DNA of 63,090 nt, the filler included, from Hausera hauseri (taxonomy: Eukaryota): NCBI GenBank assembly GCA_046269625.1. It is 11 parts of 11 records of this genome, joined end to end, with 100 filler letters (N's around TTAATTAATTAA, not from the genome) between each part and the next. Parts side by side here need not be neighbours in the genome. Positions count along the whole stretch, not along the records: positions 44,711 to 53,672 come from JBJURY010496574.1; positions 53,773 to 58,372 come from JBJURY010510794.1; 9 more parts are not named here. One strand, written 5' to 3'. Numbering within the stretch: the stretch's first letter is position 1; the number at the start of each line of letters is the position of its first letter. Position numbers and translations under genes: made by a program. This document shows, one piece after another, positions 16,206 to 63,090 of this stretch. The notes under the pieces were generated by a model, which saw nothing but the letters and a program-made list of their open reading frames with translations, was not told the DNA's origin and did not search any database.

Positions 16206-18399
16206 NNNNNNNNNNNNNNNNNNNNNNNNNNNNNNNNNNNNNNNNNNNNTTAATTAATTAANNNNNNNNNNNNNNNNNNNNNNNNNNNNNNNNNNNNNNN
16301 NNNNNAAATGCCCAAAATAGAAATCAAAGAAATGATAGAAATTTTAGTAATAACCGTAATACATTCAGCTCATATAATAAATTAGGTTATAATCCTGATA
16401 GAAACCAAGGTAGTTACTGAACCTATGTTAAATGTACGGATAATCGGAGTAATGATAATAGATATGATGCAGATAATAGACAAATGTTACAGGGCCAGAA
16501 TAAAAATACAAACAGAGCGAAATCGCCTGTAAATGAGTATGGCAGACAAAGGATTCGTCGGAATGGAAATTTAATGTTTTACATGTGGCAAAGAAGGACA
16601 TATCGCTAGGTCATGCACAAATCCTAGAAGTGTCACATTTACTAAACCGAACAAGACAAGTATGATTAAAAATAATTTAAAAGCCATTTATGGTAAACAA
16701 GGCGATATAAGCCTGATCATTGAAATGCAAGATCTACGTAGATCTGTAAGAAATCTAGGCGAAACTACAAATCCTCAAGTAATGAAGGCTAGAAACGAAT
16801 ATGAAAAGAAATTACGACTAATGGAAGTCTATCATGGTTTAAGAGAACCACAAACCGAAGAAGAATGGGTATTGGCTCCAAATAATACTAATATGGCGCG
16901 TAAGAAATCTATTCCGCGAGGAATAGCCCAATCGGAGGAACCATCGACATCCCAAAATGTAGACTTAAACGCGGAAATAGAAGTAGTAACACATAATCTA
17001 GATGAAACAACGGATGAATTCGAAAGTGAAATTATTGGACCCTTAGTCCTTAAAATAACGAAGAATAGATGTAGAAGCCCATCAGCTAAGAGAATATCTA
17101 AGAACCGCTCACGGTCTCCTATAAGAAAAGATTTATATCCTGCTGTGCTAAGAGATGATTCGCCCTTGGATACTTCCAGCATGCAAATAGGGATTCCAGA
17201 AATCTTGGAGACACCAGAGATAATAAATATTAATGACGAAATTAATGAAATCTGTCCGCTTCCCGCTAGTGAGGAAGAAACGGACGATAATAATGATCCT
17301 GATACAAAAAATGGAAAGTTCGACGTTAATGGAAGAATGCCGATGACTTAAAGAAGATGAGAATTAGGTGTCACAGTCCAGAAATACTCCGACACAATTT
17401 AGAGAGGCTTAAACAGATCAGTAAACAAACAGACATATCTGGTAAGGAACAACAATTTGCGGAGAAATTATACAAGAGTTTAAAATTATGCAGTGAAGGG
17501 AAACCCGATGAAGCAAATGAAGTAAGACAACCGGATACGTTGATAAAATGGAACCACGAATTAGAATCGTGGATTAAAAGTGGAGTTAAATTTTCGGAAG
17601 GATGGAATAAAGACGAAGTTAATATCGGAGCAAAAGTCGCTGAAGCGCAAACACTACTATCTACTCTAGAAGCTAATCCCAAGTTGAAGATAATAGCCCG
17701 TAACTTAGAACGTAAAATGGATGAAATGCGTTCTGCAATGATTAATCGGCGTAGAGAAACACCGGTTAGTGATCGACGTAATATCGATTTAGAAATATTG
17801 GGTGTAGACCCGATATACATTCCTCCTTTAATGGAGGTGATAAAAATCGCCTTTGTCGAAAACAGACGATGTGCGGACTTAGAGAACCGCATCAAAATTG
17901 AGGATGAAAAAAGATCACAGATCAGCAGTGCAAGAAATCGAATTATGTTTATAAGCAACGAAGAAACTCAATACGTAATAAAAGCTTGTATCGTAGAACT
18001 GGACGAATATAAGGACGAGTTTAGTTATGATAGTCTAATTATGAATTTCCTAAGAGGGCCGGACGATGAGTTAAAAGATACGTATAAGATGTTAGGTAAG
18101 GCTATAATGGCGAAACCAGTAATCGCAAAACAATTGTCGGAATGACCCGAATTAGTAAACCGACTAAGTAAATTAGTAGAAGACCGCAAAAAAGAATTTC
18201 TCTAAAGCGAGCCAATGGTAAAGAAGCAGCTAGGACAAAGTGCACATGATCTAGCCACAATAAGAATAGAAATAGACATTCGTACTCAATTCGAAGCGCT
18301 AAGACGACTAAAATTTATGAAAAAGAAACAAGAAGCGTCCATATGGGAGGAAATATACAAATTAATCGAAGAGACGAACTTTACGGAACAGCCGAATAC

Positions 18400-18565
18400 G
18401 ATTAATGATGTAAACGCAAAGTTAAGAATTGTCCGACTAGAATGCGTCCAACACTTAACGGATAAACCTATCGACTAGATCTCTGCCCAAGACATTGAAA
18501 TCTTAGACATATGTCCGGGACATCGAAATACGTTAACAGACGCAATAAAATTCTTGCATAAACTA
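18400..18565 (+). pseudogene. SAM-like domain within the accessory polyprotein
   Basis: DVNAKLRIVRL...ID*ISAQDIEILDICPGHRNTLTDAIKFL resembles the SAM pattern DL.ELGI...GHR.KIL.AI..L. Confidence 0.5.
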
Positions 18566-19398
18566 CAAGAATGGATGACCGGATAAGACCAGAATTTCCA
18601 TACCAAGTTGACAAAAATAAGAGATAACCCACATTTTAGCTTTCAGGAACACAAGTTCGTAAAAAAATTGTCGGATGCAATGGACCCCGACTCAAAAGTC
18701 ATAAATGAGATGTACGAGTTTGCCTATCTATTGGTAGAAATGGCAGAGATTAGTGATGAGAAGATGAGGCAATTAATGCCCAAAATACAGAAAGTAGAAG
18801 AAACATGTATTAAAACAAAAGAAATAACAGCGAGACTAGATGAACTAACAAAAGAGTTTGAAGACTACCGAAATAAATACGCTTTTACGGAATCAGAAAT
18901 TAAAAATAAGCTAGAAATTGTACAGAGATGGCAAAGAGATGTAATTATTGAACTAACCGACCATTACCAAAAGGGATTTATCAATGATAACGAGTTAAGC
19001 GAATTATTGAAAATGATTCAATATGCCTGTGAAAACGGAATAGGATTCCGAACTATGCAGATGAAAGAAATACAACCAAAATAGAAAGAAATTTGAGAAA
19101 ATGTACAAAGAACGAACATAGCTCTGGTAGACTATGGACTTCCAGATATGAGAAATTAACCAGAATGGGATGTGTACTTAGAAGAAATAACGGTCGGAAA
19201 TCCGGTAACTCCAATACACCTAGAGGAAATAGAAATGTATCAGCAGAACAGGAAATACAATCTAGAGATGCTCCTGGACTCAGAATTAACCGAGAAGGAC
19301 CTGGTGGAATCAACTAACGTGAATATGACTGAAAATAAGCTCAGGCAACTTATTCCGACCTTGACTAAACTATCTAGCGAAAAACGATTTACAGCACG

Positions 19399-19893
19399 GT
19401 GCCGAAACTTCTGATAAAAAGATATGCAGACATTTTGAAGACTAAACCCGAGGTAATGATGAAAATAATGATATTATCCGAGTTGATGGAAGAAAAAGAA
19501 TGTGAATTTATTACACATTTCTATGTAAAAGACGTAAGAGAATGGTTACTGAACAATGGCGGAACAAATGAATTAAAACACAGATTTTACTTTAGAGGAA
19601 GAATACTTGGCGATTTAGAACAGTTAGTAGATATCGGAATCATTCCCGACGAAACAAATCGAATAATAGTAATAATAGCCAATGAACAGACGAAAGAAGA
19701 AGCCACACGGAAGGCTAAAACGGAACAATGTGTAGGACAAATCTTGGGAGTACGAGACCCTGCAATGTATTTCGAGTATTTACAAACAGATGAAGACAAA
19801 GAGCAATATGACAAGAATCTAGTACCGTTAAGTGGAATGCCAACGAATGCTCCAAAACCGAAACGCCCAGTAGGCAGACCCAGGAAGCCTTGA
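19399..19893 (+). CDS. Polyprotein fragment: ubiquitin-like domain + AT-hook
   Basis: HRFYFRGRILGDLEQLVDIGI resembles ubiquitin [20 protein letters not shown]; C-terminal KRPVGRPRK. Confidence 0.65.
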   Translation: MPKLLIKRYADILKTKPEVMMKIMILSELMEEKECEFITHFYVKDVREWLLNNGGTNELKHRFYFRGRILGDLEQLVDIGIIPDETNRIIVIIANEQTKEEATRKAKTEQCVGQILGVRDPAMYFEYLQTDEDKEQYDKNLVPLSGMPTNAPKPKRPVGRPRKP

Positions 19894-20389
19894 GAAGAAA
19901 TTGACTATAATGGAGAACTGATTAGAGGATTAAGACAAATGTCGATTCCTACTTTCAGTACAGATAATGAAGAATTAAGCGAGTTAATGAAAAATTTAAT
20001 ACGTATCGTAAATTATTCGAGTCTCCGCGGAGATACATTAGACGAGAAAGAAAAGTCAATATTTAACGCAGCTAGAACAATGAGAAGTTCGCGTTTCAAA
20101 CTGTCAAAAGTAGCCTAACTGACGACGTAATAGTCGAGAAGATCACGGTGGAGAATACGATAGAAAAGCTGAGAAAAGTGTTATTGTACTTGGCAATTAA
20201 GACAAATCCTAATCGAGAAAATGAACTAAATCGAGCTACGAGTTTGGCACAAAAAGGTCTAGAAAACTCCCGTGTGAAGTAAATTGGCCAAAATTGTTTG
20301 ACAAGGAAGAAGAAAAAAGAAATAACAACAGACTCGAAGACGTCATACGGAACTTGACGACAACGGATAATAACAACCGAAAGAATGAA

Positions 20390-20736
20390 TCTAATTGGTT
20401 AGTCAGTTTGCTCACCATAATGATGTTAATAAAACAAATTGGTGCTGTTACCGTCCACGATTGTGATTGATTTAAGCTTGGACAGAAATACTCACTGATG
20501 GACTTAGAAGCATGTGAAGATGCCAGACCACATAAATTGGAAACAAAAGAAAAGAACTATTTTCTATACCAACAACAAGAATTGATACCTCTGGATGGCA
20601 TGGAATGTATGCTGAGACGATCTCGTAGTATTTTTCATTGTGGACTAATGCACGGACACTCCTCAATAATTAAACCAACAACTCCCCCAATTCCCATGAA
20701 TTTGGAAAGGCAACATTGTAAACAAGCCCGAGAAAC
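20390..20736 (+). pseudogene. env: Signal peptide and N-terminus of chuvirus-type glycoprotein
   Basis: WLVSLLTIMMLIKQIGAVTVHDCD...YSLMDLEACEDARP...LYQQQE...IFHCG. Confidence 0.75.
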
Positions 20737-28674: not shown

Positions 28675-28685
28675 TGGTGGCAGCG
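28675..28685 (+). promoter_or_regulatory. Primer-binding site, tRNA-Leu type
   Basis: TGGTGGCAGCG is complementary to a tRNA-Leu 3' end (..CGCTGCCACCA). Confidence 0.7.
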
Positions 28686-29794: not shown

Positions 29795-29826
29795 GGAGTG
29801 GTGCCTATCCCGGTAACCACCACTCC
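29782..29826 (+). promoter_or_regulatory. -1 programmed ribosomal frameshift signal (T TTA AAC + 6-nt spacer + 9-bp stem)
   Basis: The heptamer is in the correct gag phase; GGAGTGGTG (29795-29803) pairs with CACCACTCC (29818-29826); pol is open in the -1 frame. Confidence 0.88.
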
Positions 29827-32030: not shown

Positions 32031-32118
32031 CCAAGGATGGCCTTTATAGCCAGCTGTCGGATTGTGATATCCGACATTCTGACTACCAGCATTCTCAGAA
32101 TGTCTGGCATGCATTCCA

Positions 32119-39753: not shown

Positions 39754-40190
39754 ATGTTAATATGTTTATTTTGTTTTTCATTTAGAAATGTACTCAATAC
39801 CACATGTATTGCGTCACAAGTAGACATGAGGGTGATGAATGTCACCAACAAATTACGAAATATTACAAAGGTGGCAAGGACACATTTGTGGCCGATGTGT
39901 AATATTTCAACCCACTGTCCGTACCCCGATTTTTACAAAATGCACAAACATCATCTTGGTCCGTTTACATGGTCTATGAAGATGATGAACGTGCATTACT
40001 CCTTGTACCCACGGTACTGTAATAATACAGTATATAACGGTGGCGAATGTCACATGAATATGAAGCAGTATTATGACACCATAATAGTGCAGGATAAACG
40101 GGCCTATGTTTGTCCCGATTGTTCGATAGTTGCGTAAATCAACTATGAACAATTTTATAAGGATCATAAGGACCATTTGAACCAGTTTTA
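39754..40190 (+). pseudogene. Tandem Cys/His module upstream of polB
   Basis: PMCNISTHCPYPDFYKMHKHHL and GECHMNMKQYY...YVCPDCSIVA*INYEQFYKDHKDHL. Confidence 0.6.
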
Positions 40191-40208
40191 GCGCTCCAAA
40201 GGCAATCA

Positions 40209-42427
40209 GTGATGGACGCAACAGAAATCAACTGCATTCCCTCAACAAGCAGGAAACGTCAAGCATCATCAAGTCTTGACAAATGCGTGCAAAGCAATAA
40301 TATGAAGCATCATCAGCAGCAGCATCAGCAGGAACATGAACCTTCTATTAAAGTCAGGTACGATCCAAACAGATCGTACGTGGACATAAAAGTGGACATG
40401 TCAGCGAGAGCAACAGTGCAATTAAAGCATATGCCGCCCATTGTGCACGACCGGTTGGAATCAGAAGTGAAGAAATTCCAATACCACTGCAAAGTCCAGT
40501 ATTATGTACTTGTAGAATTTGAAATTTTACAAGGTGACACGAAACAATGGTACCTATCACATCGAGCTGTACCGTATTCCGAAGATTTTGTTGTCGATCT
40601 AGGCGAAAGGCTGGATGGAAAAATCGCCAAGTACATCGAAAAGGATAGTGGCTGGCGAATTATAAAAATTGCTACTCTCTACTTTATTGTAACAAAGTCG
40701 AGTGACATAATATATTTGTCTGAGCGATCATTCATACCGACACCTGAAGCTCTACAGCAGTCTCGTACAATAGTGAATGTAAAAAATAATGACTACGAAT
40801 ACTGTTTTCTTTACAGTATTTTGGCTATATTGAAATACAACGAAGTGTCCAGAAATCGTAAAAATCATCCAAATCAGTATCGGCAGTATTTTTCCGAATT
40901 GCATTTCGATGAATGCTGGATGCCGATGAAACTGAAAGCCATTCCATCTTTCGAACGGAGTGATCCGACACTGTCAATAAACGTTTTCCTGTTTAATACA
41001 ATAATAAAAATACCGTACGATGAAGAGATTTACAAGAACACTCATGTGGACATAATTTATCGAAGTCAGAATCCGAATGGCCGCTCAATATATTTGTTGC
41101 TGCTAGAGCAGAAGGAAAATTTTCATTACGTGGTCGTGACAAATTTAGGTAGACTGTTGAACATAGAAAATGACCAGTTCATCCAAAAACAATTACGGTG
41201 TAAATGGTGTCCTGTATGTCTGCATGGTTTTATATCAGAAACAACATGGGAAAAACATGCGGCGCTATGCAAACAAAATTCCTCAGGAACAACAATGTGT
41301 GTAATGCGTGTCAATGAGGATCGCAAATTTTGTGACTGGTCTAAAACGTATATTCTTGCATATGTGATATATGCAGATATCGAAAATATTCTACCACGAC
41401 ACAACGTATATGACTAAAAGTATGATCCAGTCGCCGTCGGTATGTTGGTAGTCCTAGTATATGCCATTAGTCAACCGCAGTATTACGTTTATCATGGTTG
41501 GAACTGTATACGTAATTTCCTGCAACAGTCAAAAACAGTAGTAAAAACATAAATAGCAATGTGGTATAACAATAATTGCACTAAACCTTTGGTCTGGACA
41601 GACGAACATGAACCGTTGACTTTTCCTGACACCGATGAATGTTATATGTGACACAAAAGATTAGCGTTCGATGCACAGGAGCAGGTCTTACCGGATCGTG
41701 ATCATTTTACCGGTCGATACCTAAAAGCTGCATGTAATTCACAATTTTTGCGGCCATTCCTATAGGTGATCTTTCATAACTTCAGGGGTTATGATTGTCA
41801 CCGTATTTTAAAAAGGGTAATAAATGGATTTCCACACTGGGAACTATCTGTAATTACGACTACGATGGAGAAATACCTGTCCTTGTATGCTCGCATAAAC
41901 CGTTTTCAGGTACGCTTACTCGATTCATTGCAATTTCTGAATGAATCATTGGCAAAGCTAGTAAGTGCTTTGCCAGATATGCCGTTAACATCAACACAGT
42001 TCCCTATACACATTGAACGTAGCAAAGGTATACTTCCGCATGGCTTTGCGGAATAGTATGAGAAGAATTACTAAAATTACCATTGCGATGGTCTAGTGTC
42101 ACAGAAAATGAATATCAGAAAGCACAGGAATTTTGGACAGAGCTCGGCTGTAGAAACCTGTTGGAGTAAATGATTTGGTCTCTAAAGCTTGATGTGTACC
42201 TCTTAGCCGATGTGTTTGAAGCATTTCGGACTAAAGCGTTAGAGGAAGATAGGTTGGAGCCACCCAACTTTTATTCAATTGGGAACCAGCACTTATGATA
42301 CTGGATCGTGATATAGAGCTGTTGCAATATCCAGAAATGTACCGATTGTTTGGTATTAGTATTCGTGGCGGCATGATGTTTGTCAACAAGTATCAGGTTA
42401 GTGCTGCTATCAGTGATGATACCATAT
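40209..42427 (+). pseudogene. polB: Protein-primed polB (N-terminal and exonuclease part), interrupted by a DNA transposon
   Basis: DSGWRI, VNVKN...CFLYSILA, HYVVVTNLGRL, CPVCLHGF, VIYADIE, IFHNFRGYD, LLDSLQFL, DVYLLADVFE, IRGG. Confidence 0.88.
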
Positions 42428-44710: not shown

Positions 44711-47700
44711 TACGTTATCATTCCTAAGTCTGTGGGTAGTACAGCGTTTCTACCATACATCATAATAATGGAGTAAATCCTGTTGCAGGATGTGGTGTTG
44801 TGTTTATGGCAAACTGCGTACCCTCTAAGAATTCATCCCAATCCTTCTGATCCTTCGCAACTACTGTCGATAAGATTTGTATATCTGTCGCGTTCATTCG
44901 TTCGACCATCCCGTTACATTATGGATGGTAAGCCGTTGTGGTTAACCGTTCAATTTCAAATACATTGGTAATGTCAAATAGTTCACTCGTAAAGTTCCTT
45001 CCTCGGTCTGTCAGAATTTGTTCGGGAGGTCCGTATCTGCAGATGATTTTCCTTACTACAGTTTCTGCCAGAGTCTCAGCTTTTTGGTCTACTAATGCTA
45101 TTAGTTCGACAAAATGAGTTAATCTATTTATACATGTCAGAATGTACTTATTATTCTTATGAGTTGTAGATAACGATCCTACAATATCCATGGACATCGC
45201 TTGCATTGATCTGTCCGACACATTTATTGGTTTAAGTTCGGAAATGTAGTTTTTCATTTTTTTCTGTTTGGTTGCGCATACTTCGCAAGCGCTTACCCAA
45301 TTCTTTACATCGGCCATTAGTATTCCCGTGCGTAATCTTTTCGGTATGACTACCAACTTCCGTCCTCTTCGCTCATAATATAGTACATTTTCACGGCTCG
45401 CGTCTCCTGTTATAGAGTATTCGTGACCATATTTTTGCAAATGTTTCCGTAATTGGTGTCCTTTTGGTGTTATATCTTGTTCGACGGACTCAATGATTTG
45501 TTGTATAACCTTGTCCTTCCTTTACTCAACAGAGATTTCAATCGCTTTATCCATTGCTAGAGCTCGTTGTCTGTCCACCAGTTCTTCAAGCTGGGCTTTT
45601 CTCATTACAGTAATTGCGCTTGTTTTAGTCTTAAGCCTTGATAGTGCATCTGCATCGACATGTTTGCTTCAGGGTTTGTATTGAAATTCGATGTTATACC
45701 GTGAGATCTCTTCGATCCACCGATTGAGTCTACATGTTGGGTTATTCGCTCTACCTTTCAAAGTGGTAATCACTTTGTTATCCGTAACAATTATAATTTT
45801 CTGTCCGTAGACGTTTACGTTAAAGTGTCGTAGAGCGTCTTTTACAACTAACGTTTCTAGTTCCGTGACCGAGTAATTCTTTTCGGCCTTCTTTAATGAC
45901 CTTAATGTGATTGGATGTTCTAGTTCTTCATCGTCTCGTTTCTGAGCTAACTCATACCCAATGCCTTCTTTGCTGGCATCTGTTTTAATTATAAACGGTA
46001 GGTTAAAATCTGGATATCTTAAAACAGGTTCGCTAGTTATGATTTTCTTCATTTCGTCGAAAGCTCTTTGTTCGACGTCCGCCCATTTCCATTTGATTCC
46101 CTTTTTAAGTAATCCATAAAGGTGCATTTATTTTTGAATTACCTGGTACATAAGTGGCGCAGTACCCACATAAACCTAACCAATACCTCAGCTCTTTTTG
46201 GTTCTGGGGTTCCATACAATCTGATATCTTAGCAATGATTTATCTGGTTTCAATCCCCTTTCTCCAACTATATGTCCGAGATAAGATACAGCGTTTTCAG
46301 CCCATTTACATTTCTTCGGATTCAATTCCAGTCCTGTTTGCTCCACCCTCATGAGCGTACCCTCAATATCCTTTATATGTCCTTCTGTTTTCGATGCAAC
46401 CAATACGTCATCCAGGTAGGCAAACGGGTGTTCCAGTCCCATTAGCATCTTGTTCATCATTCGCGTAAAGATGGCTGGTCCGCTAGTTTTCCCGAATGGC
46501 ATGACATTGAATTTGTATAGTCCATCATGTGTTTTTAACGCAGTTTTGTAACGATCTTCCTCTTATATTACTACCTACCAATATCTGGATTGTAAATCGA
46601 GCGTGGTAAACCTTTCGGCTCCGAAAAGTCTATCTAGGGCTTCTTTTACCGATGGCAGTGGGAAAGAATCCTTCATCATAAGTGTATTTAATGCTCGATA
46701 GTTAATACAAAATCGATGTTTGGTAGTACCTTTCTTCTTACCCGTGAGTATATGTAAGTACCAAGATCTATAACTTGGTTTAATTATATCGGCCTTTAAC
46801 ATTCATTCAACTTCCTTTGTTATCTCAGGCCTTAATGAGTGCGGGGGAGGATACCATTTTGGCATCTTCTGATCTTCTAAGTCTATTTCGTCATTGGAGC
46901 CTAGCTTTTTCTTAAGTGGAGATGTTAGTCTCAAAGTTTTTGCTCTGCCTATGTCTTCTTCGTCTTTCGCAATGACCGAGCTATAATGACAAAGTAACTC
47001 GTAAAATGGACAGTATTCTTCTGGTGAAAATTTAGTTTCTACGTGCGGTGGAAATTTGGCACACTTGTACGGTTTTTCTTCAACGGTTATTGACGATACT
47101 CTATATATGTGACACAGGGTGGTATTCTCATACAATTTGATCGGTATTGGTGCATTATTGGCTATTCTAATGGATATACGGCCCGTGGATACCCTTGTTA
47201 ATACGTTACTGTGCACGATGTTTGGGTCTAATGATTCATTTGGTTCAGAATACATTGGCTGATCGTCGTCTTGACGAATCTTGGCATATATTATTACCTC
47301 GGTCCTTGGTGGAATGTTCTCGTCTACTGGGATCCATACTTCCCCTAATTGCCTATCTTTGGTGGTTTTGACTCCTTTTATCGGGCCGAGCACTATTAAT
47401 CTCCCGGCATAGAAGTATATCGCCATATTGGTTAATTGTCTCAACAGATCACATCCTAAGACTATATCATCTGTTAACTGCTCCACTACTGAAAATTTGT
47501 GATAAAATGATTGTCCCATTATGTGGATTTCTGGATTCCATCGGAATTTGCTTTTCGATGACTGTCCGAAAGCTCCAATACTCCCTGGATCTGTTGTCGG
47601 AGGTGGGTATAGTTGTTTCCTTAGAAATTGCAGTATCCAATCATGCTTAATCGGTAATATCTCGGATCCCGTGTCTATTAGTGCATAGAATTCTCAATCT

Positions 47701-47720
47701 TCCAACTGAATTTTTGTGAA
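44711..47720 (-). pseudogene. pol: pol: protease, RT, RNase H, integrase (frameshifted)
   Basis: FYALIDTGSE (~47661-47690), IVLGCDLL, RFCINYRALN, AYLDD, IIKTDAS, MSMDIVG, ILTDRG. Confidence 0.93.
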
Positions 47721-48419
47721 GGGTCTACCTTCGATTACCTTACCATAGTGATTTGGTGCTATTTTTGGACGCTGAATCTCTGAAACCTTATAACCATTAA
47801 TTCTAACTTCAGTAGTTGTGTCTGGCTGGTCGATCATCTGTCTTAGCTCTGCGTTCGGGTACAGTTCATTGTTCGTGCGATTAACGTCTCCTGTTTCCTG
47901 ACATCCAATTGGCGGCTGTATTTCCCGGTTTCCTAAATTCCACACCTCGTGGTCTCCAAAATGTTGATCGGAATTCATTGAGCCTGGGTATTCTAGGTGA
48001 ATAAATTATTCCCTGGTCGTCGACCGCTGAACGATGGTATGGAACAGATATTCTCTTTGTTTCGCGCACTTTACACAATATACCGTAGTGTTTCGTTCCC
48101 TCATTTGGATCTTCCAGACTGAGCGGCTTCCTATAGATATCCGTTTGATATGAGCTCATAGACTGTTTCGCACAGTCTTCATATGTAGGTGCATTTGGGG
48201 GTAATATCGGCAAGGGTGATTTTATAACGGAATAGTTTTTGTTTCTATTTGTTCTCGTAACGGCGTTTCATCCTTTAGGCTCGTCATCGTCAGAATTATC
48301 TCTTTGTGCCTTGGCATTTAAGAATTTACGTCTTTAACTAAATATGTGTCTCCTTTTACGTTTTCGATTATGATAGCCGACATGTCGCTCCACATCTGCT
48401 TTCCACCTACTTTCTTCGT

Positions 48420-50225
48420 AAGCATTTAAAAATTTGCCGAAGGGTGGGATAATAGCCGTTAAAATTTTGCATGAGAACCATGTCAAGGTGAATATCTCAT
48501 ATCCATTTATAATTTTTTGAATTATCGCTTTAACCAGTTGAATTAAGAAATAGATTGCTAAGAATCCGGATGCCGCTTGTCCGAATATCAGAAATCTTCC
48601 TCAAATTTTATACAATATTTCCGTAGTTACTTTTTCATAGTAGTTAATACCAAACAATGATTCCCATTTTTCTTGATAACGTGAATCCTCTAGTATCGTG
48701 TGCATCGCTCTGTTTAATTCATACGTACGTTGGCGTGGGAAAGCAAGAAATTGTCTAAATGCCTCTACTTCCTTTGGCCGATAAATACATTTTGCTGCAG
48801 TGTCTTGAAACTTATCATCGGTTATCCCTTTTATTAGATTTGTTCCTGTTAACTTGGTGGGCGGCGTAATTATTCCACCATTCGGTAAACTTACCCAATC
48901 GAATACGCTGCGTTTAAACATTGGTTCTCCCAAACTGGTCTTACAATCTTTCAGAATTGTTGGTTGGGTAGAATTCGCCAGCAATACTCTCGTAATGGGC
49001 GTCACTAATCTTGGCATATCCCGATATATTACTGGAAGTTCTTGAATGTGCCTTTTTTCTTCCACATTAATAGGTACATCCTTCTTTTCGCACTCGTAGA
49101 TCAGCAGAACTTCTCCGGTCACTCGTCCAAAAACACTTTCTTTCATCGGAATTATTGGTAACTCTAACTCGGGGTTGGCATTTAATAAGACTAGTTTGGT
49201 TCTCATTATTTTTAAGTCTCGTTTGCAGTCGTTTGTTATCATCTTGTGGTATAACTCAGTTTTTCCGGCCTGTCCCTTGTAGTAGAAATAGTCATCTCTA
49301 TTTTTCAAATAATCTTCAATTCGAATATCTTGAGTCTCAAGTTTGAACGTCTTGGTATTTATCTCGGTCTCAGCTATAAAGAACGCTTCATAATTAGTGG
49401 CATACATTACTACATCACATCTGGTGAGGACATCTTTCTTCACAAACTTTAACCCATGAGGATCGGAAATTAGTATGGTAGGTGTAGGCTGTTCCGCTAC
49501 ATTTTCTCCTGTTTTCGAGTTAGTATCTATGCTACTTATATAACGTCTCCCTGTCGTTTCATTGAACTTAAGTTCCTTAATACTAATAAAGTTGCAGTTA
49601 CATTTGGCTCGGAGTTCCCAGATTACTACCGAACTTCTAAAAACACAGGTGCCGTCTTGGATGTGGCACTTTTGGTTTTCCGTATAGAGCTTGGTGACAC
49701 TATGAAACATTACCTTTTGTATGCGCATCTCGGTTTCGTAGAAATCCATAACCACTATGTTTGATTCCAATCCTTTTCCAGTATCATATTCTGCACCGTT
49801 GCAGTGACCTGTATGCATATCTAATCTTCATGCTGCTTCTTTGTACTCTCTGATTACCTTCCTTTGCTGCATTTCTAATTCCATGCCGTCCCATTTCAGC
49901 CTGCCTGTTTCTCTAGCCTGCTTACAATGTTGGCGTTCCAAGCTCATTGGAATTAGTGCTGTCGTCGGTTTGATTATTGATGAATGTCCGTGTATTAATC
50001 CACAATGGAAAATACTGCGAGATCGTCACAACATGCATTCTAGTTGCTGATACAGTACATATTTTTTTCTTTTCTTTCTAATTTATGTGGTCTCGCATCT
50101 TCGTACATTTCCAAATCCATCAATGAATATTTCTGGCCAAGTCTGAATTTTTCGCAGTCATATATGATAACTGCTCCCATTTGCCTTATTAACATCATCA
50201 CAGTCAGGAAATTAATTAGCCAGTT
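48420..50225 (-). pseudogene. env: Chuvirus-type (class III-like) glycoprotein with signal peptide and C-terminal TM
   Basis: IIYDCE..YSLMDLE, IFHCG, GEVLLIYEC, ELPV, PITRVL; after a TGA (probably from TGG) FGQAASGFLAIYFLIQLVKAIIQKIINGY TM region. Confidence 0.82.
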
Positions 50226-53200
50226 TGATTCGTTTCTCCCATTATTTCCGGTTAAGTTTTGTAACATATCTTCGAATCCACAATTATTACTAACGAATGG
50301 TCCATTTTGGCGTCCTTCGTCCTTTTCGAATAGTTTGGACCAATCTACTCCTCGGGGCAGTTTTCTACCGGCCTTTCGTGCTAGACAAGTGGCTTCATTA
50401 AATTCATTTTCTCGGGCTGGATTCGTTCTAATGGCCAAATATAATAATACTTTCCGCAGTTTTTCTACGGTTTGCTCTACCGTAATTTTCTCAATCACCA
50501 ATTCATCGTTTAAGGTGCTTCTCAATCATTTGTTGCAGAAATTCTTCATTGTTCTGGCTGCATTCAATATAGATTTCTCTTTTTCGTCTAGTATATCGCC
50601 ACAGAGACTAGAGTGGTTTACTATGCCTATTAGATTCTTTATAAGTTCATTTAACTCTTCATTTTCCGTGTTGAAGGTTGGTATGGACATTTGCCTTAAT
50701 TCTCCAATTAAATATCCATTGTAGTCAATTTCTTTCCGCATTTTCCGCGGCCTACCAAGAGAACGCTTAAGTTTCACTATTACCGATGCGATTTCACTAG
50801 GTGGTACTAAATTCTTATCATACTGTTCCTTATCTTCATCGGTTTGTAAGTATTCGAAATACATTGCTGCGTCTCGAACGCCGATGATCCGTTCCACACA
50901 TTGATCAGTTTTGGATTTTCTGCTGGCTTTTTCTTTTGTTTCTTCCGCACAAGCGTTACTATTATCCGATTTGTTTCACTGGAATAATTCCGACGTTTAT
51001 TAATTGCTCCAGTTTGTCTAATATCCTACCTCTAAAGTAAAGTCTATAATTTAGTTCGCTTGCACAACCATTACTTATTAGCCACTCTATCACGTCTCCT
51101 ACGGAGGAGTGCGTAGTGAATTCACGCTCTTTCTCGTCCATCCAATCCGACGATATCCTTACTTTAATCGGCTCCTCGTTTTTAGCCCTTAAGATTTCCG
51201 CATACTCCTTTATCAAAAGTTTTGGCACGGCACTATAAGTTGTACCTTCACTAGATAATTTAGTCAGGGTAGGAACTAGCTGTCTAAACTGATTTTCGGT
51301 GAGGTTTACATTAATTAACTTAATTAAATCTTTCTCTGATTGTGCCGAGTCAAGAAGCATTTCCATACTGAATCTTCGATCCGACGGACATATCTCCCTT
51401 TCGTACAATCGTACGGGAGTTTTCGGGTTTTCATCAACCATTGCGTCTAAATGTGCATCTCATTCTGGTTCGTTTTCGTTGCCCGGCGGTCGATAATCAG
51501 TGGTCGGTGCCTCTACTGGTTTGGCCACATCTGCAACTGGTATTGACCCTCTTAGTTCGCGTAACTTCTGTTGCATTTTAATCATTTGCGTCGTCCGGAA
51601 GCAATGTCCATTACCAGAAGTTTGCCGTAAAGATGTTAACAGCTGGTATAATTCTTCGGCTGAAATCAGTCCTTTTTCTTGTTAACTTGTTAGTTCAGAG
51701 GCTACGTTTCTATGCTATCTTTGTACAAACTGCGACTTGTCGACTTTCACCGCTTCTGTGAGAGCGTGTTTATTTCTATTGATCTCGAGCTCGTTTAGTA
51801 ATACGTTTAGCTTATGGCTCTCTGCTTGGTTTTAATGAAAGTTTCTTCGACTTGGCGTATCTGGGGCAACAATTTTTTTATCTTCTCACCGTTAATTTCC
51901 GCCATTTCCACCATTAGGTGTGCTAAGTCATACATTTCATTAATAATTTTTGAGTCCGGATCCATCGCATCCGATAATTTCCTTAGAAATCTGACTTCTT
52001 CGACGCTGAGATGGTGGTCATTTCTGATCCTTATAAGTTCGGTATGACATCTCTGGTCCGTTCCAATCATCTATTTTTGTGAGTCGTGTAAAAATTTTAT
52101 CGCCTCTTCTATCGCTGATCGGTGCTCCGGGCAAACGTCCAACGTCTCTAGATCTTGAATCGAGATTTCTTTGATATGTTTTGTTGTAAAGTACTGAATT
52201 CCTTCCAGGCAGACGTTTCTTAGCCTCGGATAGAAGCTACAAGTCATTCCGCTTCTGTGTAAAGTTTGTTTTTTCGATCATTTTGTATATATCTTCCAAT
52301 ATCGTCGTCTCTTGTTTTCTTTTCATAAACTTCAATTGACATAATGCATTAAATTGTTTCCTAATATCCACTTCCGCCCTCATTGTATCCAGATTGCGTA
52401 CATCTTCTAATTGTTTATTTACTGTAGGCTCACTTTTAGGGAACTCTTTTATGCGATCTTCTACTAATTTACTCAGTCTAGTTATTACTCGAGACCATTC
52501 GTCTAGCTGGTTAGAGATATTTGGCTTCGCTAACACTGCTTTGTCCAGCATTTTGCATGCGTCTTCTAACTCGTCGTCTGGGCCTCTGATGAAACTAATA
52601 ATCCGGTATGCATAGTTGAATTCATCCTTATATTCATCAACTTTAAGGATGCAGGCTTAAATTATGTCCTGTGTCTCATCGTTGTCCAATTGCATGATCC
52701 GATTTTTCTCAAACTATATATCTGCGACTTTTTTTCGTTTTCGATTTTGATACGATTTTCCAGACTTGTATATTGTTTTGATTCGGTGGACGCAATTTTT
52801 ATCATGTCCATTAATTGTGGGATATCTGGCGAGCATATACCCAACAATTCCAGGTCAATTGAGTTCCGTTCCCTGACTGCATTTTCTTTGAGCCTCCTAA
52901 CCATTTCGAATCTGATTTCATCTATGACACGCCCCAGGTTACGTGTTACTCTTTTTAGTTTTGGATTGGCTTCCAATGTAATTAATAATGCTTGGGCGTT
53001 TTTTAGTCTTGCTTCGACATTCTCTGTACGTTTATCCCACGCTTCGTGAGGTTTTACTCCACTTTTTGTCCATGCTTCTAATTCGTATTTCCATTTTGCT
53101 AACGTTTCTGGGGGCACTTCCTCAGATTTCCCTAGATCTATAGCTTCGCCCAGTTTTCCTTCACTATATAGTTTCATTTTCTTGTATAATCTTCCTATAA

Positions 53201-53662
53201 ATTTCTGCTCTTTACCCGAGATGTCTACTTGTTTGTTCATCTCTTTAAGTTTCTCTAGATTCTGTTGTAATATGTCTGGGTTGAGGCAATTAATTCTATT
53301 CTCTTTAATTCATCAGCATTTTTCCACGAATGTTTGATTTTCCACTGTTTCTGATCTACCGTCTCACTTTGTTCGGTCTCTTCTTCACTAGAAGGTAGTG
53401 GACATATCTCATTAATTTCATTAACAGATTTTGTTAACTCTTCTATTCCGACAGCGGTATCTAATCCAATTCCCGGGGTATTCAAGGTGAACTCTACATC
53501 GCTTTCTAGAACGGTTTCAGTTTCCTTTACTCTGTCTGATTTTTCCTTATTCATCGGGGATCGTGAACGATCTTTAAGTTTCCGCTTTAATGATGGACTG
53601 CGGCCTCTATTCTTGGTAATGTTGAGTATTAATGGTTCCATAAATTCTTTTTCTTCGTCCAC
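50226..53662 (-). pseudogene. Accessory polyprotein (acidic region, helical/SAM-like, ubiquitin-like, AT-hook, Bcl-2-like)
   Basis: Homolog of 17000-20390; RLYFRGRILDKLEQLINVGI, KRSLGRPRK, DLETLDVCPEHRSAIEEAIKFL. Confidence 0.7.
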
Positions 53663-53983
53663 CTCTATGGTTNNNNNNNNNNNNNNNNNNNNNNNNNNNN
53701 NNNNNNNNNNNNNNNNTTAATTAATTAANNNNNNNNNNNNNNNNNNNNNNNNNNNNNNNNNNNNNNNNNNNNCACCATAACTTGTAACGGATCTTTCATC
53801 GATGCAAACTTTATTTTCTGTCTTCTCCGTTTTCAATCCCTGTATGGTTATTTGGTAGTTCCAGTCTGGTTAAATTTCAACATTTTTGGGTAGAGAATAA
53901 GGGCGGAAATGTTTACGATATCGTGTGCTGAGTCCTTCAATTTTTGAAAAGTCCCGTAAATTTTGTTTAGGGTTTGCGGGAGT

Positions 53984-55161
53984 CTATTCATAATCCCACT
54001 TTAATCCAGCATTTATATCTCTTAGATATTGTGATCTTTGACTTTCGGATATTATTCTGCTTATTTTTACATTTTCTCCGGTCATGGCCTCTACCATTAA
54101 CTTAAAACGGCCTTCCATAGTCAGTGGTATATGGCTCCTTTTTTCTTCCATCTTATTTTCCACTTGTCTCATAATAGTCGGGTGAGTTTCTATTTCCCTT
54201 ACTCCGGCTATATATGTTATCGTTATGGCCAATTTCCTCATTATCCTCTCTATTCGATACCCCACTAAGACGTATACATAGAGGCATTGCGTTACTTTTT
54301 TTGTACTAATTTAAAATCCCTTCCATGATTTAGATACTCTCTTTTAATTCCAGTAATTTCTGCATGCGTTTCAAACACTTTTTGTCTTGGATTGATGATC
54401 TTTGAATAGACTTTAGTCCCGTTCTCTTCTCGGATGGATATCTCGATGGCAAGGTAATTTCCTTCTTCTCCTTCCCCATAATTTATCGCGGCAATTCTAA
54501 GATTTCTCTCGTTAGCTAGCAATCTATAGGACTGTAGGTGTGTGCCCTGTTCTTCTTTTGTATGTCTTTGTCTAAATTCCAAAGGTGGTAGCGGTATACA
54601 TATTTCTTCTTCTGTTGTTTCTATCATTATTTTTACTGGTAAGGCGGCTACGCGAAATTCCAATTCGTGATTTTTGAGGCTCCTACTGTTGAATATAAAG
54701 ATACTAAACCGACTTTGTCTTCCTTGGAAGGAATCCCATTTCTGATCCTTTAGTCGATAGTATATTTCCCCGTCTGCCAAGTGCACATAAATCTCCTGTT
54801 CCTTATCTGGTTGGTACTGAGCGATTGGTCTAAAGGGGTATGCTCTAGCATCTTTGTCCTCCCTCCATGCGTATAAATATACGGCTCTGGCCTCCTCGGT
54901 CGTTCCTTTCAAACCATTTGGGATATCACCAACTCTTCCGTATTGAACAAAATTTTTTCCTTGCAATTCGGCGTTGATTTGCCTGTAGATGGCTTTTGAA
55001 TTCGGAATCCGCACTGTTACGTATTGTTGTAAAAATACGTCAATATTAAGTAGACTTGTGGCGTTTTCGGCGTCGATTCTAATTCGGCTCGAAATGTCTT
55101 CTGCGTCGATCCTAAGTCGGCTTAATTCCATCTGGATTCGGTTACTTACCAATCTGAACAA
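53984..55161 (-). pseudogene. Accessory ORF with C-terminal pseudo-DEDDh exonuclease (REX4/ISG20-like)
   Basis: RIAAINYGEG...LAIEISIREENGTKVYSKIINP...EITGI...DFKLVQKK, then (frameshift in an A-run) VTQCL...LVGYRI. Confidence 0.65.
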
Positions 55162-55251: not shown

Positions 55252-56660
55252 TCAAGTTATTTTATTATATGGGTCTACAGGGTTCTCCAATTCCCTTAGT
55301 TCCCATTCTGAATTTTTATGACGCTTAGAACCACAGTTTTTGATGACTAGTCGAAAAATTGCAATTAATATAATGAGAACAAACGCTGACAGTACGGAGA
55401 TGGATATAATTAGTAGTGTAGTTAATCCCATCGGGGCTTGTGTGGCGACCGGAGTTGTGATCTGCTCATCTATATCCTCGTACGTATGTGAGGCTGCACG
55501 AATCTCATCTAAAGTTTGCAATGTAACGGTCTGATTTTGCTTATTCTCTGCACATACTTGTACTATATATCTGGTTTGTGGTTTTAATAAATTGCACTCT
55601 GTTTGATAAATATTTTTAAATAGCGTCACAACTTGATTATTATACGTTGTCCGACAATTTATGTACATGTTGTAGTTTTGTTTTTCTTCCACGAAGAACA
55701 CAATTTTAGACCGATATACCGAATATTTAATAGGAATGTTTCCTAATTCTCTTTTCGGCACACTGGCCTACGTAACGGTTGTCGTAATGGTACTAACTTG
55801 AGTTACCGGTCTTCTGGTGGTTGTCTCTACCGAAATTTTCCAAATTTTATTTTCTGGATAGTAAGTTCGAAGTTGTACACTTGGTTTATTAGGCCGTACT
55901 TCATGTAAGTCAAATATTATCTTGAATTCTTGGTTTACGGGTATTTTACAGCATGGGTTTTGCACATCTGCTCGAATAGAACAATATTCTATTTTCGGGG
56001 TCGGTCCATCTGTGGCTTTAAACGTAATACTATTTTCCTGACTAAAGGTTACTCCTGTTCTAGCGCCTACTTGAATGCATTGTTCGTCCTTATTCACAGA
56101 GATTCTCTGTATATTTTCGTCTAATATTCTTATATCTGGGTCAGTGGATCATAATATTTCATTAAGTTTTACTTCATGATGTCTATTCCATTTGGGAACG
56201 CCTAACTGAAATGGTGGTTTTACTTCAGTATAAAGTTTGGTTGAGTCTAGTAGGTACAAGCCATAGGTGAGGTTATAAGTATGTCCAAAATCTATGTTGC
56301 AACACTGTGTATTTTCTCCAGCTCAAAATCACAATTTTTCGCTTCCTTTTTTGTTACATCATGTAAACCAACCTGAAATTTTCCGAAATTATGGTGTGAC
56401 CTCCAAGCATTAAATCCAACGCATACGGCGTTTGGCGAGTAATAGTGAACTGTCATCGATTGTGACAATTTGGTATCTTCTTGTTTTTGAATTTCTTCGA
56501 CTGTTGGTTTCTTTTCCGATTTAACTGTTTCCGATTTTGATCCACTCTTCCGAATTCCGTATATATCTCCTAACGTAGATTCATCGTGCCACCATAGCGC
56601 TTGTATTCTTGGGATGTAGAAGGCAATCAACGATAATGCTAAGACTATTTGAACATATGA
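55252..56660 (-). pseudogene. Type I membrane protein with FN3-like domain(s)
   Basis: Signal VQIVLALSLIAFYIPRIQA; LKPQTRYIVQVCAEN (FN3 tyrosine-corner motif); Thr-rich linkers; TM LLIISISVLSAFVLIILIAIFRLVI. Confidence 0.7.
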
Positions 56661-56689: not shown

Positions 56690-58372
56690 TCGCCTCGCGT
56701 TGGCGTAAATTATAACGTTTGTTGGGTTGTATTTCTGTCTTTACAACTCTTTGTACTGATATGACTTCTTCCTTTCCATTTTTGTTAATATGTGCTGTAG
56801 TTGGCGTAATCTTTGTAACTTCGTACGGTCCTCTACCCGTACGAGTTAATTTTAGTGAGGTGCCTTTTTTGGCTACTGGATAATGTACATAAATCCAATT
56901 TCTTTGTTCTATATCATGGGGTTTCGCTTTCTTATTATATTGCTTCTTAAACTGTTCTTGATATTCTTGGAATAGTTCTTTTGGCGATTTCCCAACACTT
57001 TTGCAACGGTGTTTGTAATACTTCTGCGAAATTCTGTTCTAAATCTTCGGATTTAACTGTGTATGGCGTCATTGCTAAGTCCGTGGGCAACATGACTTCA
57101 CGCCCATAAATCATAAAAAATGGCGTAAATCTTGTTGCTGGATGTGGCGTGGTATTAATTGCAAATTGCCTTTCTTCCAAAAATTCGTCCCAATTTTTTT
57201 AATCTTTCGCTACTACTGTTGATAATATACGTATGACGGTAGCATTCATCCGTTCGACCATTCCATTACACTGAGAGTGATATGCAGTAGTTGCTAATCT
57301 ATCGATTTCAAATATTTTGGTGATTTTCTGAAAGAATTCGCTGGTAAAATTTTTTCCTCCATCTGTGAGTATCTGGTCTGGGGACCCGTATCGACAAATA
57401 ATTCTCCTTACAGAGGCTTCTGCCAGGGTTTCGGCCCTTTGATCAACCAATGCTATCATTTCGACAAAGTGAGTTAATCGATCAATACAAGTTAAGAAAT
57501 ACTTATTGTTCTTGTGCGTCGTAGGTAGAGGTCCCACGATATCCATCGACATGGCTTGAATGGACCTATCGGGCACATTGATTGGTTTTAATTCCGCCAT
57601 GTAATTTTTCGTTTTCTTTTGTTTAGTTGCATATACTTCGCACGCGCTTATCCAATTTCTTACATCGATATAGATCCACGGCCAAAAATATTTATTCATT
57701 ATTCTTTCTAAGGTTTTCTTCCAGGAGATATGTCCGGCTAAGTATGAATCGTGTTCTGACATCAGTATTTCGGTTCGTAAGCTTTTTGGAATAACTATCA
57801 ACTTCGTTCCTGTTCTTTTGTAATATAAAATGTCTCCTTCGTTCACGTCATTTAAGACGCAGTATTTATGTCCATATCTGTTTAAATGTTTCTTTAACTG
57901 TCGTCCTTTTGGCATAACATCCTTTTTAGCAAATTCTATAATATGCTGGATAACTTTATCCTTTTTCTGTTCTGTTGAAATTTTGATCGCCTTATCTATT
58001 GTTAACGCGCGTTGGCGGTCTGTTATTTCCTCAAGTTGGCCTTTCTTCAACACAGTGATTGCGCTTGTCTTAGTCTTTAATCTCGATAGTGCACCAGCGT
58101 CTACATGTTTATTTCCTGCCTTATACTGGAATTCGATATTGTATCTGGAGATTTCTTCGATCCATCTGTTTATTCTGCATGTCGGGTTATTTGATCGGCC
58201 TTTTAAGGTCGTAACGGCTTTATGATCAGTGACGATTATAATTTTCTGCCCGTAAACATAAACATTAAAATGATGCAGTGCTTCTTTCACAGCTACAGTC
58301 TTTAGCTCGGTAACGGAAGAGTTTTTCTCAGCTTTTTTCAAAGAACGTCCTCCATAAGCGATCGGATGTTCC
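56690..58372 (-). pseudogene. pol: RNase H - integrase of giant element, copy C
   Basis: VTDHKA, H...GH...C..., MDIVGPLP, ILTDGG, NGMVER, GPYEV, RYNLR; closely similar to 44711-45900. Confidence 0.93.
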
Positions 58373-60860: not shown

Positions 60861-60889
60861 CTATTTGACAGTTAGATATTAAAGATAAA

Positions 60890-63090
60890 ATGCAGACACC
60901 AGTTCCACAAGAAGGAATGGAAATTGATCAACCAGTTTCTGAACTAGCAGTTCATGAGGAGGGACCGAATGTACAAGGGAGTCAAATTATTAAAGATATT
61001 TTAGAAGTAATAGGGCAATCAAACCTAGCCAATCCAGCTAATGTACAAGATATATTAAATATGCTTCAACCAAAACAAGAAACAACGCAAACCGACAAAC
61101 GACCACAAGGTCGTCCAAGAAAAAACCTCTGGGAGCAAGTTAAAGTTGATACTCTAACTAAAGCATTAAGAAAAAGTGAAATTCGAATAATGGACTTTGA
61201 AACAAGACAAATTAAACCGATTCTATGGAGGATTTATAGCTCTCTATTTGCAGTAGAAAATGATCAATTAATTGATGAGCCACTTACTCTTGATATTGAA
61301 AATCACCTGAAGCGAACGTTGGTTCGATTAGAAGCAGCAGTGAAAAATGAACAATTATCAGAACGAATAGACCCCATAGAAGATGGTGAAATAATACAAA
61401 AATGGATTAAGACGGGAGGTTTAACAAAAGATCGCGTTATCACTATTTTAGTATACTTAGTAATGAGAATTAAAAATTCAGCCAATACAACTGAAGAAAG
61501 AGAGAGTAGCTTTGATACAGCTATAGAAATTTTGAAAACATATCTATCTCCAGATATAGATCGAATTGGAGGATGGAATGATTTGTTGAGTTTGGATAAG
61601 CCTCAAAAGACTGAAAGTAAAATATCAGAACGGGGAAATAGAGCAGATAGTCTCGGGGAACATGAACTTTCTGAACTATTCATTAGGGCACAGAGGCTAT
61701 TTAGTGCTACATTACCTAGACCAGGAAGTAATGATTTAACATGGCTAATTATACTTCTTGTGATCTTGTGTCGAGGAACCAATGGTTTTCGAGCATATGA
61801 TTGTGACTATCCAGCTGTTGGGGCTTCATACTCCCTTGTAGATCTAGAAAAATGTCCAGATGCGGAACCCGATAAACTTATATTTGAAGGTACTAAAAAT
61901 TATAGAATATATCAAGAAAATAGATTTATACGAGTGAAAGCGCTTGAATGTAAGCTAACTAAGCAAATAAAGAAATGGCATTGTGGGAAAATGCATCGAC
62001 ATTCAACAAACATATTAATGGCCACACCAAACGAACCGTATGAATTAACAATGGATCAATGTCGAGACGCGGTGAAAAATGGAAAATTAAAAATAAACAA
62101 CAAAGTTGAAATAGGGGCTGCCGTAAACGCTATAAATTATCATACGATCAACGAAGAAGGCTCTATTACAGCTAACGGAGATTGTTATGGAAACACAGTA
62201 GATGGTGTTGCAAGAGTTGTGGTACAGGCATTATATACATTAACTATTGTTGAAAAGGATATTTCATTTGATATACAATCAAAACAATTAATGGTTAAAA
62301 CAGACTGTAAGTACGGTACTGAATACTGTAGAACTACTGATTCCATTATTACTTGGACTGCACCGGTGGTTGAATGTAATTTAGCCTTTCTAAAAAAGAT
62401 AAAATTTAATGTAACCAGGGGAATACGACTTAGTATACCATTTGCACGACGAAATATTGGAAGTGAAAGTGAGGAAGATAAGTTAGAGCAAATAGATACA
62501 CCAACAATTATGATTTCTACGAAGATCGAAGACTCTATAAGATTCATACGAAAAGAAAAAGTAACTAAATGTGGAGTCGAAGATATCTATGCTACTAATA
62601 TGGAAAATATTTATGTTTCAGAAATAGAAATAGAAAACGCTCAGAAGACTGTACATCCCACAGAAGTAAGACCAATGAGTTATTATAATGGAAAAATAGA
62701 TTATTTATTCCATTATATGGTAAATAACCAATATCAAATTTATAAGGATATGATTCAAAACGATTGTTTACTAGCTCAGGATTTATTAGCATTAAGAGTG
62801 ACCGTAGCCGCCATCAATCCAGCTATAGACACGCCTGTACTACCAACAAAAGTAAAAGGTATGTTTGGACGAGTATCAGGAGAAGCTATGATAACATTTA
62901 AGTGTACGGAAGTAATGGTAAACCTAGTGGACATGAAAGCATGCACAAATGAAATAGCGGTGCAATATAAGGATGAAATAAGATATGTAGCCCCGATCAC
63001 TAGAGTTATGTTACAAAAATATGAAGAACCTACTAAAGTAAGAAATTGTTATAAGGAAGTTGCCCCCTTATATAAAATCCATAAGGATGA
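60890..63090 (+). CDS. env: Open ORF running off the window (absent from the ORF track): AT-hook, Bcl-2-like domain, signal peptide, chuvirus-type glycoprotein
   Basis: Hand translation shows no stop over ~733 codons: RPQGRPRK, GGLTKDRVITILVYL, IDRIGGWNDLL, TWLIILLVILCRGTNG, FRAYDC, YSLVDLEKC, WHCG, GEAMITFKC, YVAPITRV. Confidence 0.85.
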   Translation, partial: MQTPVPQEGMEIDQPVSELAVHEEGPNVQGSQIIKDILEVIGQSNLANPANVQDILNMLQPKQETTQTDKRPQGRPRKNLWEQVKVDTLTKALRKSEIRIMDFETRQIKPILWRIYSSLFAVENDQLIDEPLTLDIENHLKRTLVRLEAAVKNEQLSERIDPIEDGEIIQKWIKTGGLTKDRVITILVYLVMRIKNSANTTEERESSFDTAIEILKTYLSPDIDRIGGWNDLLSLDKPQKTESKISERGNRADSLGEHELSELFIRAQRLFSATLPRPGSNDLTWLIILLVILCRGTNGFRAYDCDYPAVGASYSLVDLEKCPDAEPDKLIFEGTKNYRIYQENRFIRVKALECKLTKQIKKWHCGKMHRHSTNILMATPNEPYELTMDQCRDAVKNGKLKINNKVEIGAAVNAINYHTINEEGSITANGDCYGNTVDGVARVVVQALYTLTIVEKDISFDIQSKQLMVKTDCKYGTEYCRTTDSIITWTAPVVECNLAFLKKIKFNVTRGIRLSIPFARRNIGSESEEDKLEQIDTPTIMISTKIEDSIRFIRKEKVTKCGVEDIYATNMENIYVSEIEIENAQKTVHPTEVRPMSYYNGKIDYLFHYMVNNQYQIYKDMIQNDCLLAQDLLALRVTVAAINPAIDTPVLPTKVKGMFGRVSGEAMITFKCTEVMVNLVDMKACTNEIAVQYKDEIRYVAPITRVMLQKYEEPTKVRNCYKEVAPLYKIHKD

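Follow-up and report, generated by a model that had tools for sequence, protein, structure and literature searches.

We analysed a 63,090-nucleotide stretch of Hausera hauseri DNA (the window), made up of 11 contigs joined by N spacers, around a large retrovirus-like element on the minus strand of contig 9 (JBJURY010496574.1, positions 44711-53672). Related pieces lie on contig 4 (plus strand), contig 10 (minus) and contig 11 (plus). The contigs are 4-9 kb long and end inside coding sequence. On its single coding strand contig 9 carries, in order, a coiled coil, a ubiquitin-like (Ubl) domain, an AT-hook, a Bcl-2-like domain, a signal-like stretch, an envelope glycoprotein (Env) of family PF24664, and the protease (PR), reverse transcriptase (RT), RNase H (RH) and integrase (IN) of a retroelement (Table 1).

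An earlier reading of the window made from the DNA alone (the sequence-only reading) had proposed a family of large retrovirus-like elements ordered gag-accessory-env-pol-accessory. For a Ty3/gypsy family this order is supported both by the contigs and by intact relatives. On contig 9, the one-strand succession of more than 3 kb of accessory region, glycoprotein and PR-RT-RH-IN that it had described is present, on the evidence of Pfam matches and a visible PR motif. The CCHC knuckle reported in frame with the accessory protein on contig 4 scores as zf-CCHC (E 1e-5) and opens an open reading frame (ORF) at 16575-17348; the C-terminal portion of this ORF shares 44% identity with the first ORF on contig 9. 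The two contigs are collinear, at 66-69% nucleotide identity, from the accessory region as far as where env begins. Contig 11, named as a distant relative with AT-hook, helical domain and glycoprotein, holds all three in one open 740-residue frame (PF24664, E 1e-41). Its helical domain and env are 28-38% identical to those of contig 9 at the amino acid level, and no homology of its upstream ORFs to contigs 4 or 9 was detectable. Contig 10 shares RH-IN with contig 9 (70-74% nucleotide identity) and then continues into further reading frames, as had been stated. The estimate of roughly 15 kb of coding sequence was a little high: summed coordinates give about 12 kb of polyprotein-coding DNA, or 13-13.5 kb if two downstream ORFs of contig 10 are counted.

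Table 1. Features of the element on contig 9 and of the related pieces in the window
Contig	Coordinates	Strand	Feature	Basis or remark
9	51460..53671	-	Long helical/coiled-coil accessory region, broken	Sits where Burro has its Smc-like region
9	50965..51459	-	Helical segment and Ubl domain (Ubl ~50965-51198)	Weak
9	50730..50915	-	Conserved segment of no assigned fold, then AT-hook-like GRPRK	71% identity to contig 4
9	50271..50729	-	Diverged Bcl-2-like helical domain, one in-frame stop	Homologous to contig 11 domain, E 1e-7
9	48337..50230	-	Internal signal-like stretch, gB/chuvirus-like fusion glycoprotein (ectodomain from ~50162), membrane segments near 48460-48600; broken	
9	47694..48336	-	Linker from env tail to PR, continuing the env frame with one frame change	Three-frame translation, repeat search
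9	47082..47729	-	Aspartic protease (DTG) and dUTPase-like spacer (~47082-47333)	Aligns with PR of P0151, P0170, P0171
9	44711..46802	-	RT (YLDD), RH, IN; broken	Pfam
4	16575..20736	+	Related copy: CCHC knuckle, accessory region, Ubl, AT-hook, Bcl-2-like domain, env start	Pfam, contig comparison
10	56745..58371	-	RH-IN and IN C-terminal domain, sister lineage	Pfam; joins contig 9 in RH-IN tree (starred support 100)
10	55255..56660	-	Type I membrane protein: signal-like (~56600-56657), ectodomain with FN3-like motif, Thr-rich stalk, transmembrane segment (~55354-55419), tail; broken	
10	53987..55134	-	Two further same-strand ORFs (280 aa from first Met; 108 aa), candidate element parts	
11	60869..63088	+	AT-hook (~61103), Bcl-2-like (~61196-61600), signal-like stretch, env from ~61793; one open frame	

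PF24664 (Monjiviricetes_fusion) matches three consecutive ORFs of contig 9 (48337-50025, minus strand; E 9e-20, 3e-10 and 5e-4). This mononegavirus-like env stands between gag and pol, upstream of PR on contig 9 and downstream of the CCHC knuckle on contig 4, and the hydrophobic stretch ahead of it and the transmembrane (TM) segment behind it recur in relatives. The contig 9 env is 23-28% identical to the envs of intact polyproteins. Our env tree, a quick tree like the RH-IN and RT-RH trees, is built on 42 rows. Sixteen carry the label polyprotein, which two fragments among them received without domain evidence; 24 were taken from 97 other slices, and two come from the window. A clade with starred support 97 unites contigs 9 and 11 with all 16 polyprotein-labelled rows and one of the 24 others, and the stand-alone glycoproteins fall apart from it. 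The sequence-only reading had spoken of a chuvirus-type envelope. The family assignment stands. The glycoprotein is not a recent capture like that of the BEL/Pao element Anakin, because the contig 9 env groups with polyprotein envs and not with stand-alone glycoproteins of ~650 residues. A single-sequence fold of the contig 11 740-residue ORF was unusable (predicted local distance difference test, pLDDT, 31), and no glycoprotein B (gB) structure appeared among the 60 PDB rows listed for the env profile; the gB identity of the env family is that given in PMC13524379. On that assignment, the element combines a Ty3/gypsy pol with a herpes simplex virus/gB-type env ahead of it.

The pol of contig 9 scores for RVT_1 (E 4e-18), RT_RNaseH_2 (E 3e-28) and rve (E 6e-11), and its matches and PR-RT-RH-IN order mark it as gypsy-type. 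IN is missing about 30 residues of the zinc-binding region relative to contig 10. PR is visible as an ALIDTGS motif near 47690, unscored by Pfam. The spacer between PR and RT matches a profile built from relatives (E 9e-9). That profile also matches residues 470-553 of protein P0243 (E 1.4e-4), where Pfam places a Herpes_ORF11 dUTPase domain (E 6e-4); the spacer itself has no direct Pfam or PDB match and is linked to dUTPases solely through this chain of profiles. Between env and PR, translation in three frames reveals sequence of coding-like character all the way from the env membrane segment, across the 640-base linker, into the protease. A repeat search of this junction found no direct or inverted repeats of long terminal repeat (LTR) size, the largest being 17-30-mers at chance level.

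Protein searches based on words, run with the ORF of contig 11 against longer proteins and with the contig 9 env, gave no matches. We attribute these blanks to limits of sensitivity because an HMMER search did find matches: 486 proteins at E <=0.001 with the contig 11 open frame. Of the 17 best, 15 were scanned, and PR and/or RT follows env in the same protein in 11 of them, with a Gag marker before env in four. A 4844-residue cluster member has env, several proteases, ankyrin, RT, RH and IN. A search with the contig 9 pol among proteins of 1642-5228 residues listed 120 rows, five of which carry PF24664. P0170 (3865 residues) is a single ORF with two CCHC knuckles, env, PR, RT, RH and IN, and P0011 follows the order of the planarian element Burro with CCHC, ubiquitin (E 0.031), Bcl-2 (E 0.055) and env. 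Individual relatives match contig 9 in env as well as in pol, with the order of the two unchanged. Contig 11 is open from accessory region to env, the relatives are open from env to pol, and contig 9 is broken at the env-PR junction. Because of that break, a single ORF in the contig 9 lineage is deduced from the relatives, and the intact ancestor is likely to have made all domains as one polyprotein.

In the pol search, P0170 was outranked by 17 rows, 16 of them gene models of Cordylochernes and one a protein of Salpingoeca; these likely owe their scores to summing over several pols in one model and were set aside. Some relatives have peculiarities of their own. P0006 (HBK71150.1), an env-pol polyprotein, is filed under a Flavobacteriaceae metagenome-assembled genome and is likely to be misbinned animal DNA. 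P0151, P0009, P0170, P0008 and P0003 have several aspartyl-protease-like domains (seven stretches in P0151), some of them behind the integrase; contig 9 has one. P0172, P0176 and P0185 are single gag-env-pol ORFs in which PF24664 matches much more weakly (P0176 also matches Glycoprotein_B, E 0.004); two of the three fall outside the main RH-IN fork described below, and they are probably a second gB subtype with the same gene order. P0245, with a gypsy pol in 3581 residues, has a Macro domain and ~2,100 residues between RNase H and integrase.

Directly before env, the helical domains of contig 11, P0011, P0002, P0003 and P0010 align with BH1- and BH2-like segments. A profile of this domain finds Bcl-xL as its best match (E 0.0045, across the BH1/BH2 region), and 59 of the 60 rows listed belong to the Bcl-2 family. 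Every Foldseek row listed for a model of the contig 11 domain (pLDDT 66, from a 6-row alignment) is likewise of the Bcl-2 family, with a best E of 0.002 and none at E 0.001. Comparison of the model with the Bcl-2 fold gives Z 11.6 and a root-mean-square deviation of 3.5 over 130 residues, and Z values below ~13 may be chance in helical bundles. An ESM Atlas search (best 0.78) was uninformative. Sequence and fold agree despite the warning on Z, and the contig 11 domain is predicted to fold like Bcl-2; the contig 9 version is homologous but diverged.

Further upstream, six of seven PDB rows for the Ubl segment are Ubl domains (E 0.46-1.4). The contig 9 ORF matches residues 394-522 of P0011 (E 0.002), the stretch that Pfam scores as ubiquitin, and a profile from six relatives matches contig 4 at E 0.0024. 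These weak but concordant hits suggest a Ubi/SUMO-like domain before the Bcl-2-like one. The GRPRK motif scores as AT_hook at E 0.19, and the conserved segment ahead of it gives the impression of a chromodomain. The coiled-coil region is 42-62% identical between contigs 9 and 4 at the amino acid level, draws only weak coiled-coil rows in Pfam and has no match among 272 relatives. In it the proportions of nonsynonymous (pN) and synonymous (pS) differences are 0.23 and 0.76 (328 codons). Across the five regions compared, accessory parts included, pN is 0.09-0.23 versus a pS of 0.69-0.80, at which synonymous sites are near saturation. The compared parts were therefore working protein under purifying selection.

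Contig 9 itself is a dead copy, since ~10 frame changes and ~18 in-frame stops (counted by eye along the homologous path) are spread all along it, RT and IN included. In run X1, 6271 short contigs align on contig 9 and cover 30 of 30 bins, 352 of them at identities of at least 99%, 979 at 95-99% and 4940 at 90-95%. This coverage fits a high-copy family, although no copy number can be derived from it. Run X1 is probably the window's own source and is therefore not independent.

Beyond IN, contig 10 reads in frame into a signal-like stretch followed by an ectodomain, a stalk rich in Thr, a TM helix and a short tail. The same ending is found in five relatives (P0006, P0008, P0151, P0170 and P0171), and P0013 has a signal-like stretch after IN and later hydrophobic segments. 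A segment of the contig 10 ectodomain scores in Pfam for fn3 (E 0.077) and Pur_ac_phosph_N (E 0.013), and a profile from the five relatives ranks the contig 10 protein first of 1067 window ORFs (E 0.12). As a sequence pattern the post-integrase membrane protein is solid; its homology across relatives and its FN3 fold are weakly indicated. PDB sequence searches with the FN3-like segment, the 280-residue ORF of contig 10 and the PR-spacer ORF of contig 9 gave nothing meaningful. The 280- and 108-residue ORFs have no Pfam, PDB or relative matches; the AT skew of their stretch resembles that of the element. A conserved C-terminal PDZ-binding motif was considered and rejected: among six relatives P0151 ends in a class I-like sequence, P0006 and P0170 have hydrophobic C-termini, and the apparent end of contig 10 has no such motif. 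A second membrane protein behind the integrase goes unmentioned in the Burro section of PMC6431247 and in the passages of PMC13524379 used here (no dedicated literature search was made).

In the RH-IN tree (40 of 106 slices plus two window rows), contigs 9 and 10 pair at starred support 100 on a branch of 1.37. Both lie within a support-90 fork that holds eight of the ten rows with env in frame, together with P0152.

Our preferred reading, to which we give a probability of about 0.8, is that contig 9 holds a giant, Burro-like Ty3/gypsy element, now decayed, with env placed between host-like domains and pol, whose intact ancestor likely made all of these parts as one polyprotein. The window family is a long-branched, divergent lineage of the published group. 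We are confident that the element works like Burro; a place inside Burro's clade proper is probable, and its host is likely to be a flatworm. Several observations weigh against this reading. The likeness to Burro1/GYPSM1 is one of described domain order, and the MATH, BIR, ankyrin and midasin-like domains described for Burro are not seen in the partial contigs of the window, although ankyrin is present in the relative P0151. Neither Gag capsid nor LTRs occur within these contigs, outside whose ends they would lie; the Gag part scored is one CCHC knuckle on contig 4 (Burro has 2-3). The family is 30-37% identical to its nearest intact relatives, and the RH-IN fork that holds contigs 9 and 10 on their long branch is unstarred. 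In the RT-RH tree (64 of 125 rows), for which a careful run is incomplete, contig 9 joins the unrelated contig 5 on long branches. Every score for the Ubl, dUTPase and FN3 assignments falls below curated cut-offs. The contig 9 Bcl-2-like domain has no GGW motif, which precedes env in only 4 of 16 relatives checked, and the limits of the Foldseek and Z scores given above count here too, as does the frame change between env and PR.

The long branches, the low identity and the coiled coil unmatched among 272 relatives could instead point to a GAG-ENV-POL lineage in its own right, whose host may not be a flatworm and which is Burro-like in its working but lies outside Burro's clade, and such elements are not monophyletic according to the passages of PMC13524379 on them. 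We consider this improbable, though the most serious of the alternatives: the Ubl, Bcl-2-like and env parts follow Burro's order, the env clade is starred at 97, and the motif series YQE, C-G, TP, RF, KCG, Y-TN of the window env is shared by the envs of Smed_errantivirus_1-6 and not by ten bryozoan envs (compared by eye). The stops and the frame change between env and PR, and the lack of an intact copy of the contig 9 lineage among the sequences examined, would also suit production of pol by programmed frameshift or readthrough behind env. This is very unlikely, as such lesions are scattered through the whole of contig 9, other run X1 copies differ from it at some breaks, and the relatives are open across the junction. 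That env and pol are two elements brought together by nested insertion or assembly is the least credible of the three: no single run X1 piece spans all of contig 9 and the linker has less depth than env or pol, but the summed depth there is still 581-1388 versus ~10 for pieces identical to the contig 9 copy, the junction has continuous coding sequence without LTR or repeat, and in intact relatives one ORF encodes env together with pol, and in some of them gag as well. Nested insertion is therefore unlikely, as the sequence-only reading had also concluded.

The hydrophobic pattern, together with what is generally known of viral polyproteins, leads us to infer how the element may have worked. 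The polyprotein would thread the endoplasmic reticulum membrane, with Gag, coiled coil, Ubl, AT-hook and Bcl-2-like domain in the cytosol. The internal signal would send the gB-like ectodomain into the lumen, with a signal peptidase cut just before the YDC motif. Past the membrane segments, PR-dUTPase-RT-RH-IN would again be cytosolic and be excised by the element's own protease, and a second signal behind IN would free a second type I surface protein. Such an arrangement would yield one Env per Gag and Pol with no need for splicing. Budding capsids would take Env with them and spread between cells. The modelled Bcl-2-like domain would bind BH3 proteins and so keep the producer cell alive. A bolder reading, which on balance we doubt, makes true enveloped viruses of these elements: their membrane-threaded polyprotein would yield both parts of an entry kit, the gB-like fusogen ahead of pol and, behind integrase, an FN3-type protein for attachment or signalling, as well as a working viral Bcl-2. 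If true, it would amount to a herpes-like toolkit on a retrotransposon backbone, and the long-branched lineage would show the design to be old and wider than Schmidtea.

The window also contains other elements. Contig 6 (26097-30863) has a 638-residue env-like ORF with a hydrophobic start, an RKKR furin-like site, a C-terminal TM segment and no Pfam match. An open gag (CCHC) and PR follow it on the same strand after ~700 bases, and the GC content is 45%. This is either an env-gag-pol order or the end of one copy ahead of the next. Fragments of protein-primed DNA polymerase B at 220-3012, 32083-33174 and 39718-42056 (PF03175, E 3e-7 at 1718-2329) are presumably Polinton/adintovirus-like; contigs 1 and 7 have 1 kb in common, 71% alike. 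A mariner-type transposase fragment (Transposase_1, E 4e-14) lies at 11862-12585, and three decayed ordinary Gypsy elements at 13577-16205, 20837-23500 and 33834-38281, with the RTs of contigs 3 and 5 being 67% alike. A viral contig scan gave three pattern matches, none confirmed.

Among known systems, Anakin and other BEL/Pao elements with a chuvirus-like glycoprotein, which PMC13524379 describes, share the glycoprotein family PF24664 with the window element. They have, however, a BEL/Pao pol with env behind integrase (compare P0045, with DUF5641 and then env), whereas the window pol is gypsy-type and env precedes PR, which rules out an Anakin-type element. A closer likeness is to the Platyhelminthes C1a GAG-ENV-POL errantiviruses, which have the same gene order and a gB-type env between two hydrophobic segments. 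The parts of PMC13524379 concerned catalogue gB-type elements of this order in Nematoda, Bryozoa and Platyhelminthes, six of them from Schmidtea. These six are presumably Burro elements, a name that paper does not use: "Burro", "BCL" and "polyprotein" have no occurrence in its main text, so accessory domains are not treated there.

Burro/GYPSM1 is the closest described match. Its ORF of 4,873-5,140 residues holds Gag with CCHC knuckles followed by Smc, MATH (which varies between elements), Ubi2/SUMO-like and BCL2-like regions, an in-frame env between gag and pol that matches mononegavirus fusion proteins, and a dUTPase-like domain between PR and RT (Burro section of PMC6431247). Burro elements have LTRs and exceed 30 kb in total length. 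The window element resembles it in Gag CCHC, coiled coil, Ubi/SUMO-like and BCL2-like domains, mononegavirus-like env before pol, PR and RT-RH-IN, and apparently in high copy number; a dUTPase-like spacer and a very long ORF are probable further likenesses, and decayed copies are reported for Burro too. It differs in an estimated ORF of ~4,000 residues and in the AT-hook and post-integrase membrane protein, which that section does not mention. The novelty of architecture that the sequence-only reading had implied therefore falls away, because the Burro env already stands in frame behind Ubi/SUMO- and BCL2-like domains and GAG-ENV-POL elements with gB-type env are already catalogued. For gene order the value of the window is confirmatory: it adds a divergent, apparently high-copy lineage to the published group. 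The predicted Bcl-2 fold and the purifying selection on accessory domains support the proposal in PMC6431247 that elements like Burro may interfere with the apoptosis and ubiquitin systems of their hosts, and the recurring post-integrase membrane protein offers a testable handle on attachment or cell signalling by invertebrate retroelements.

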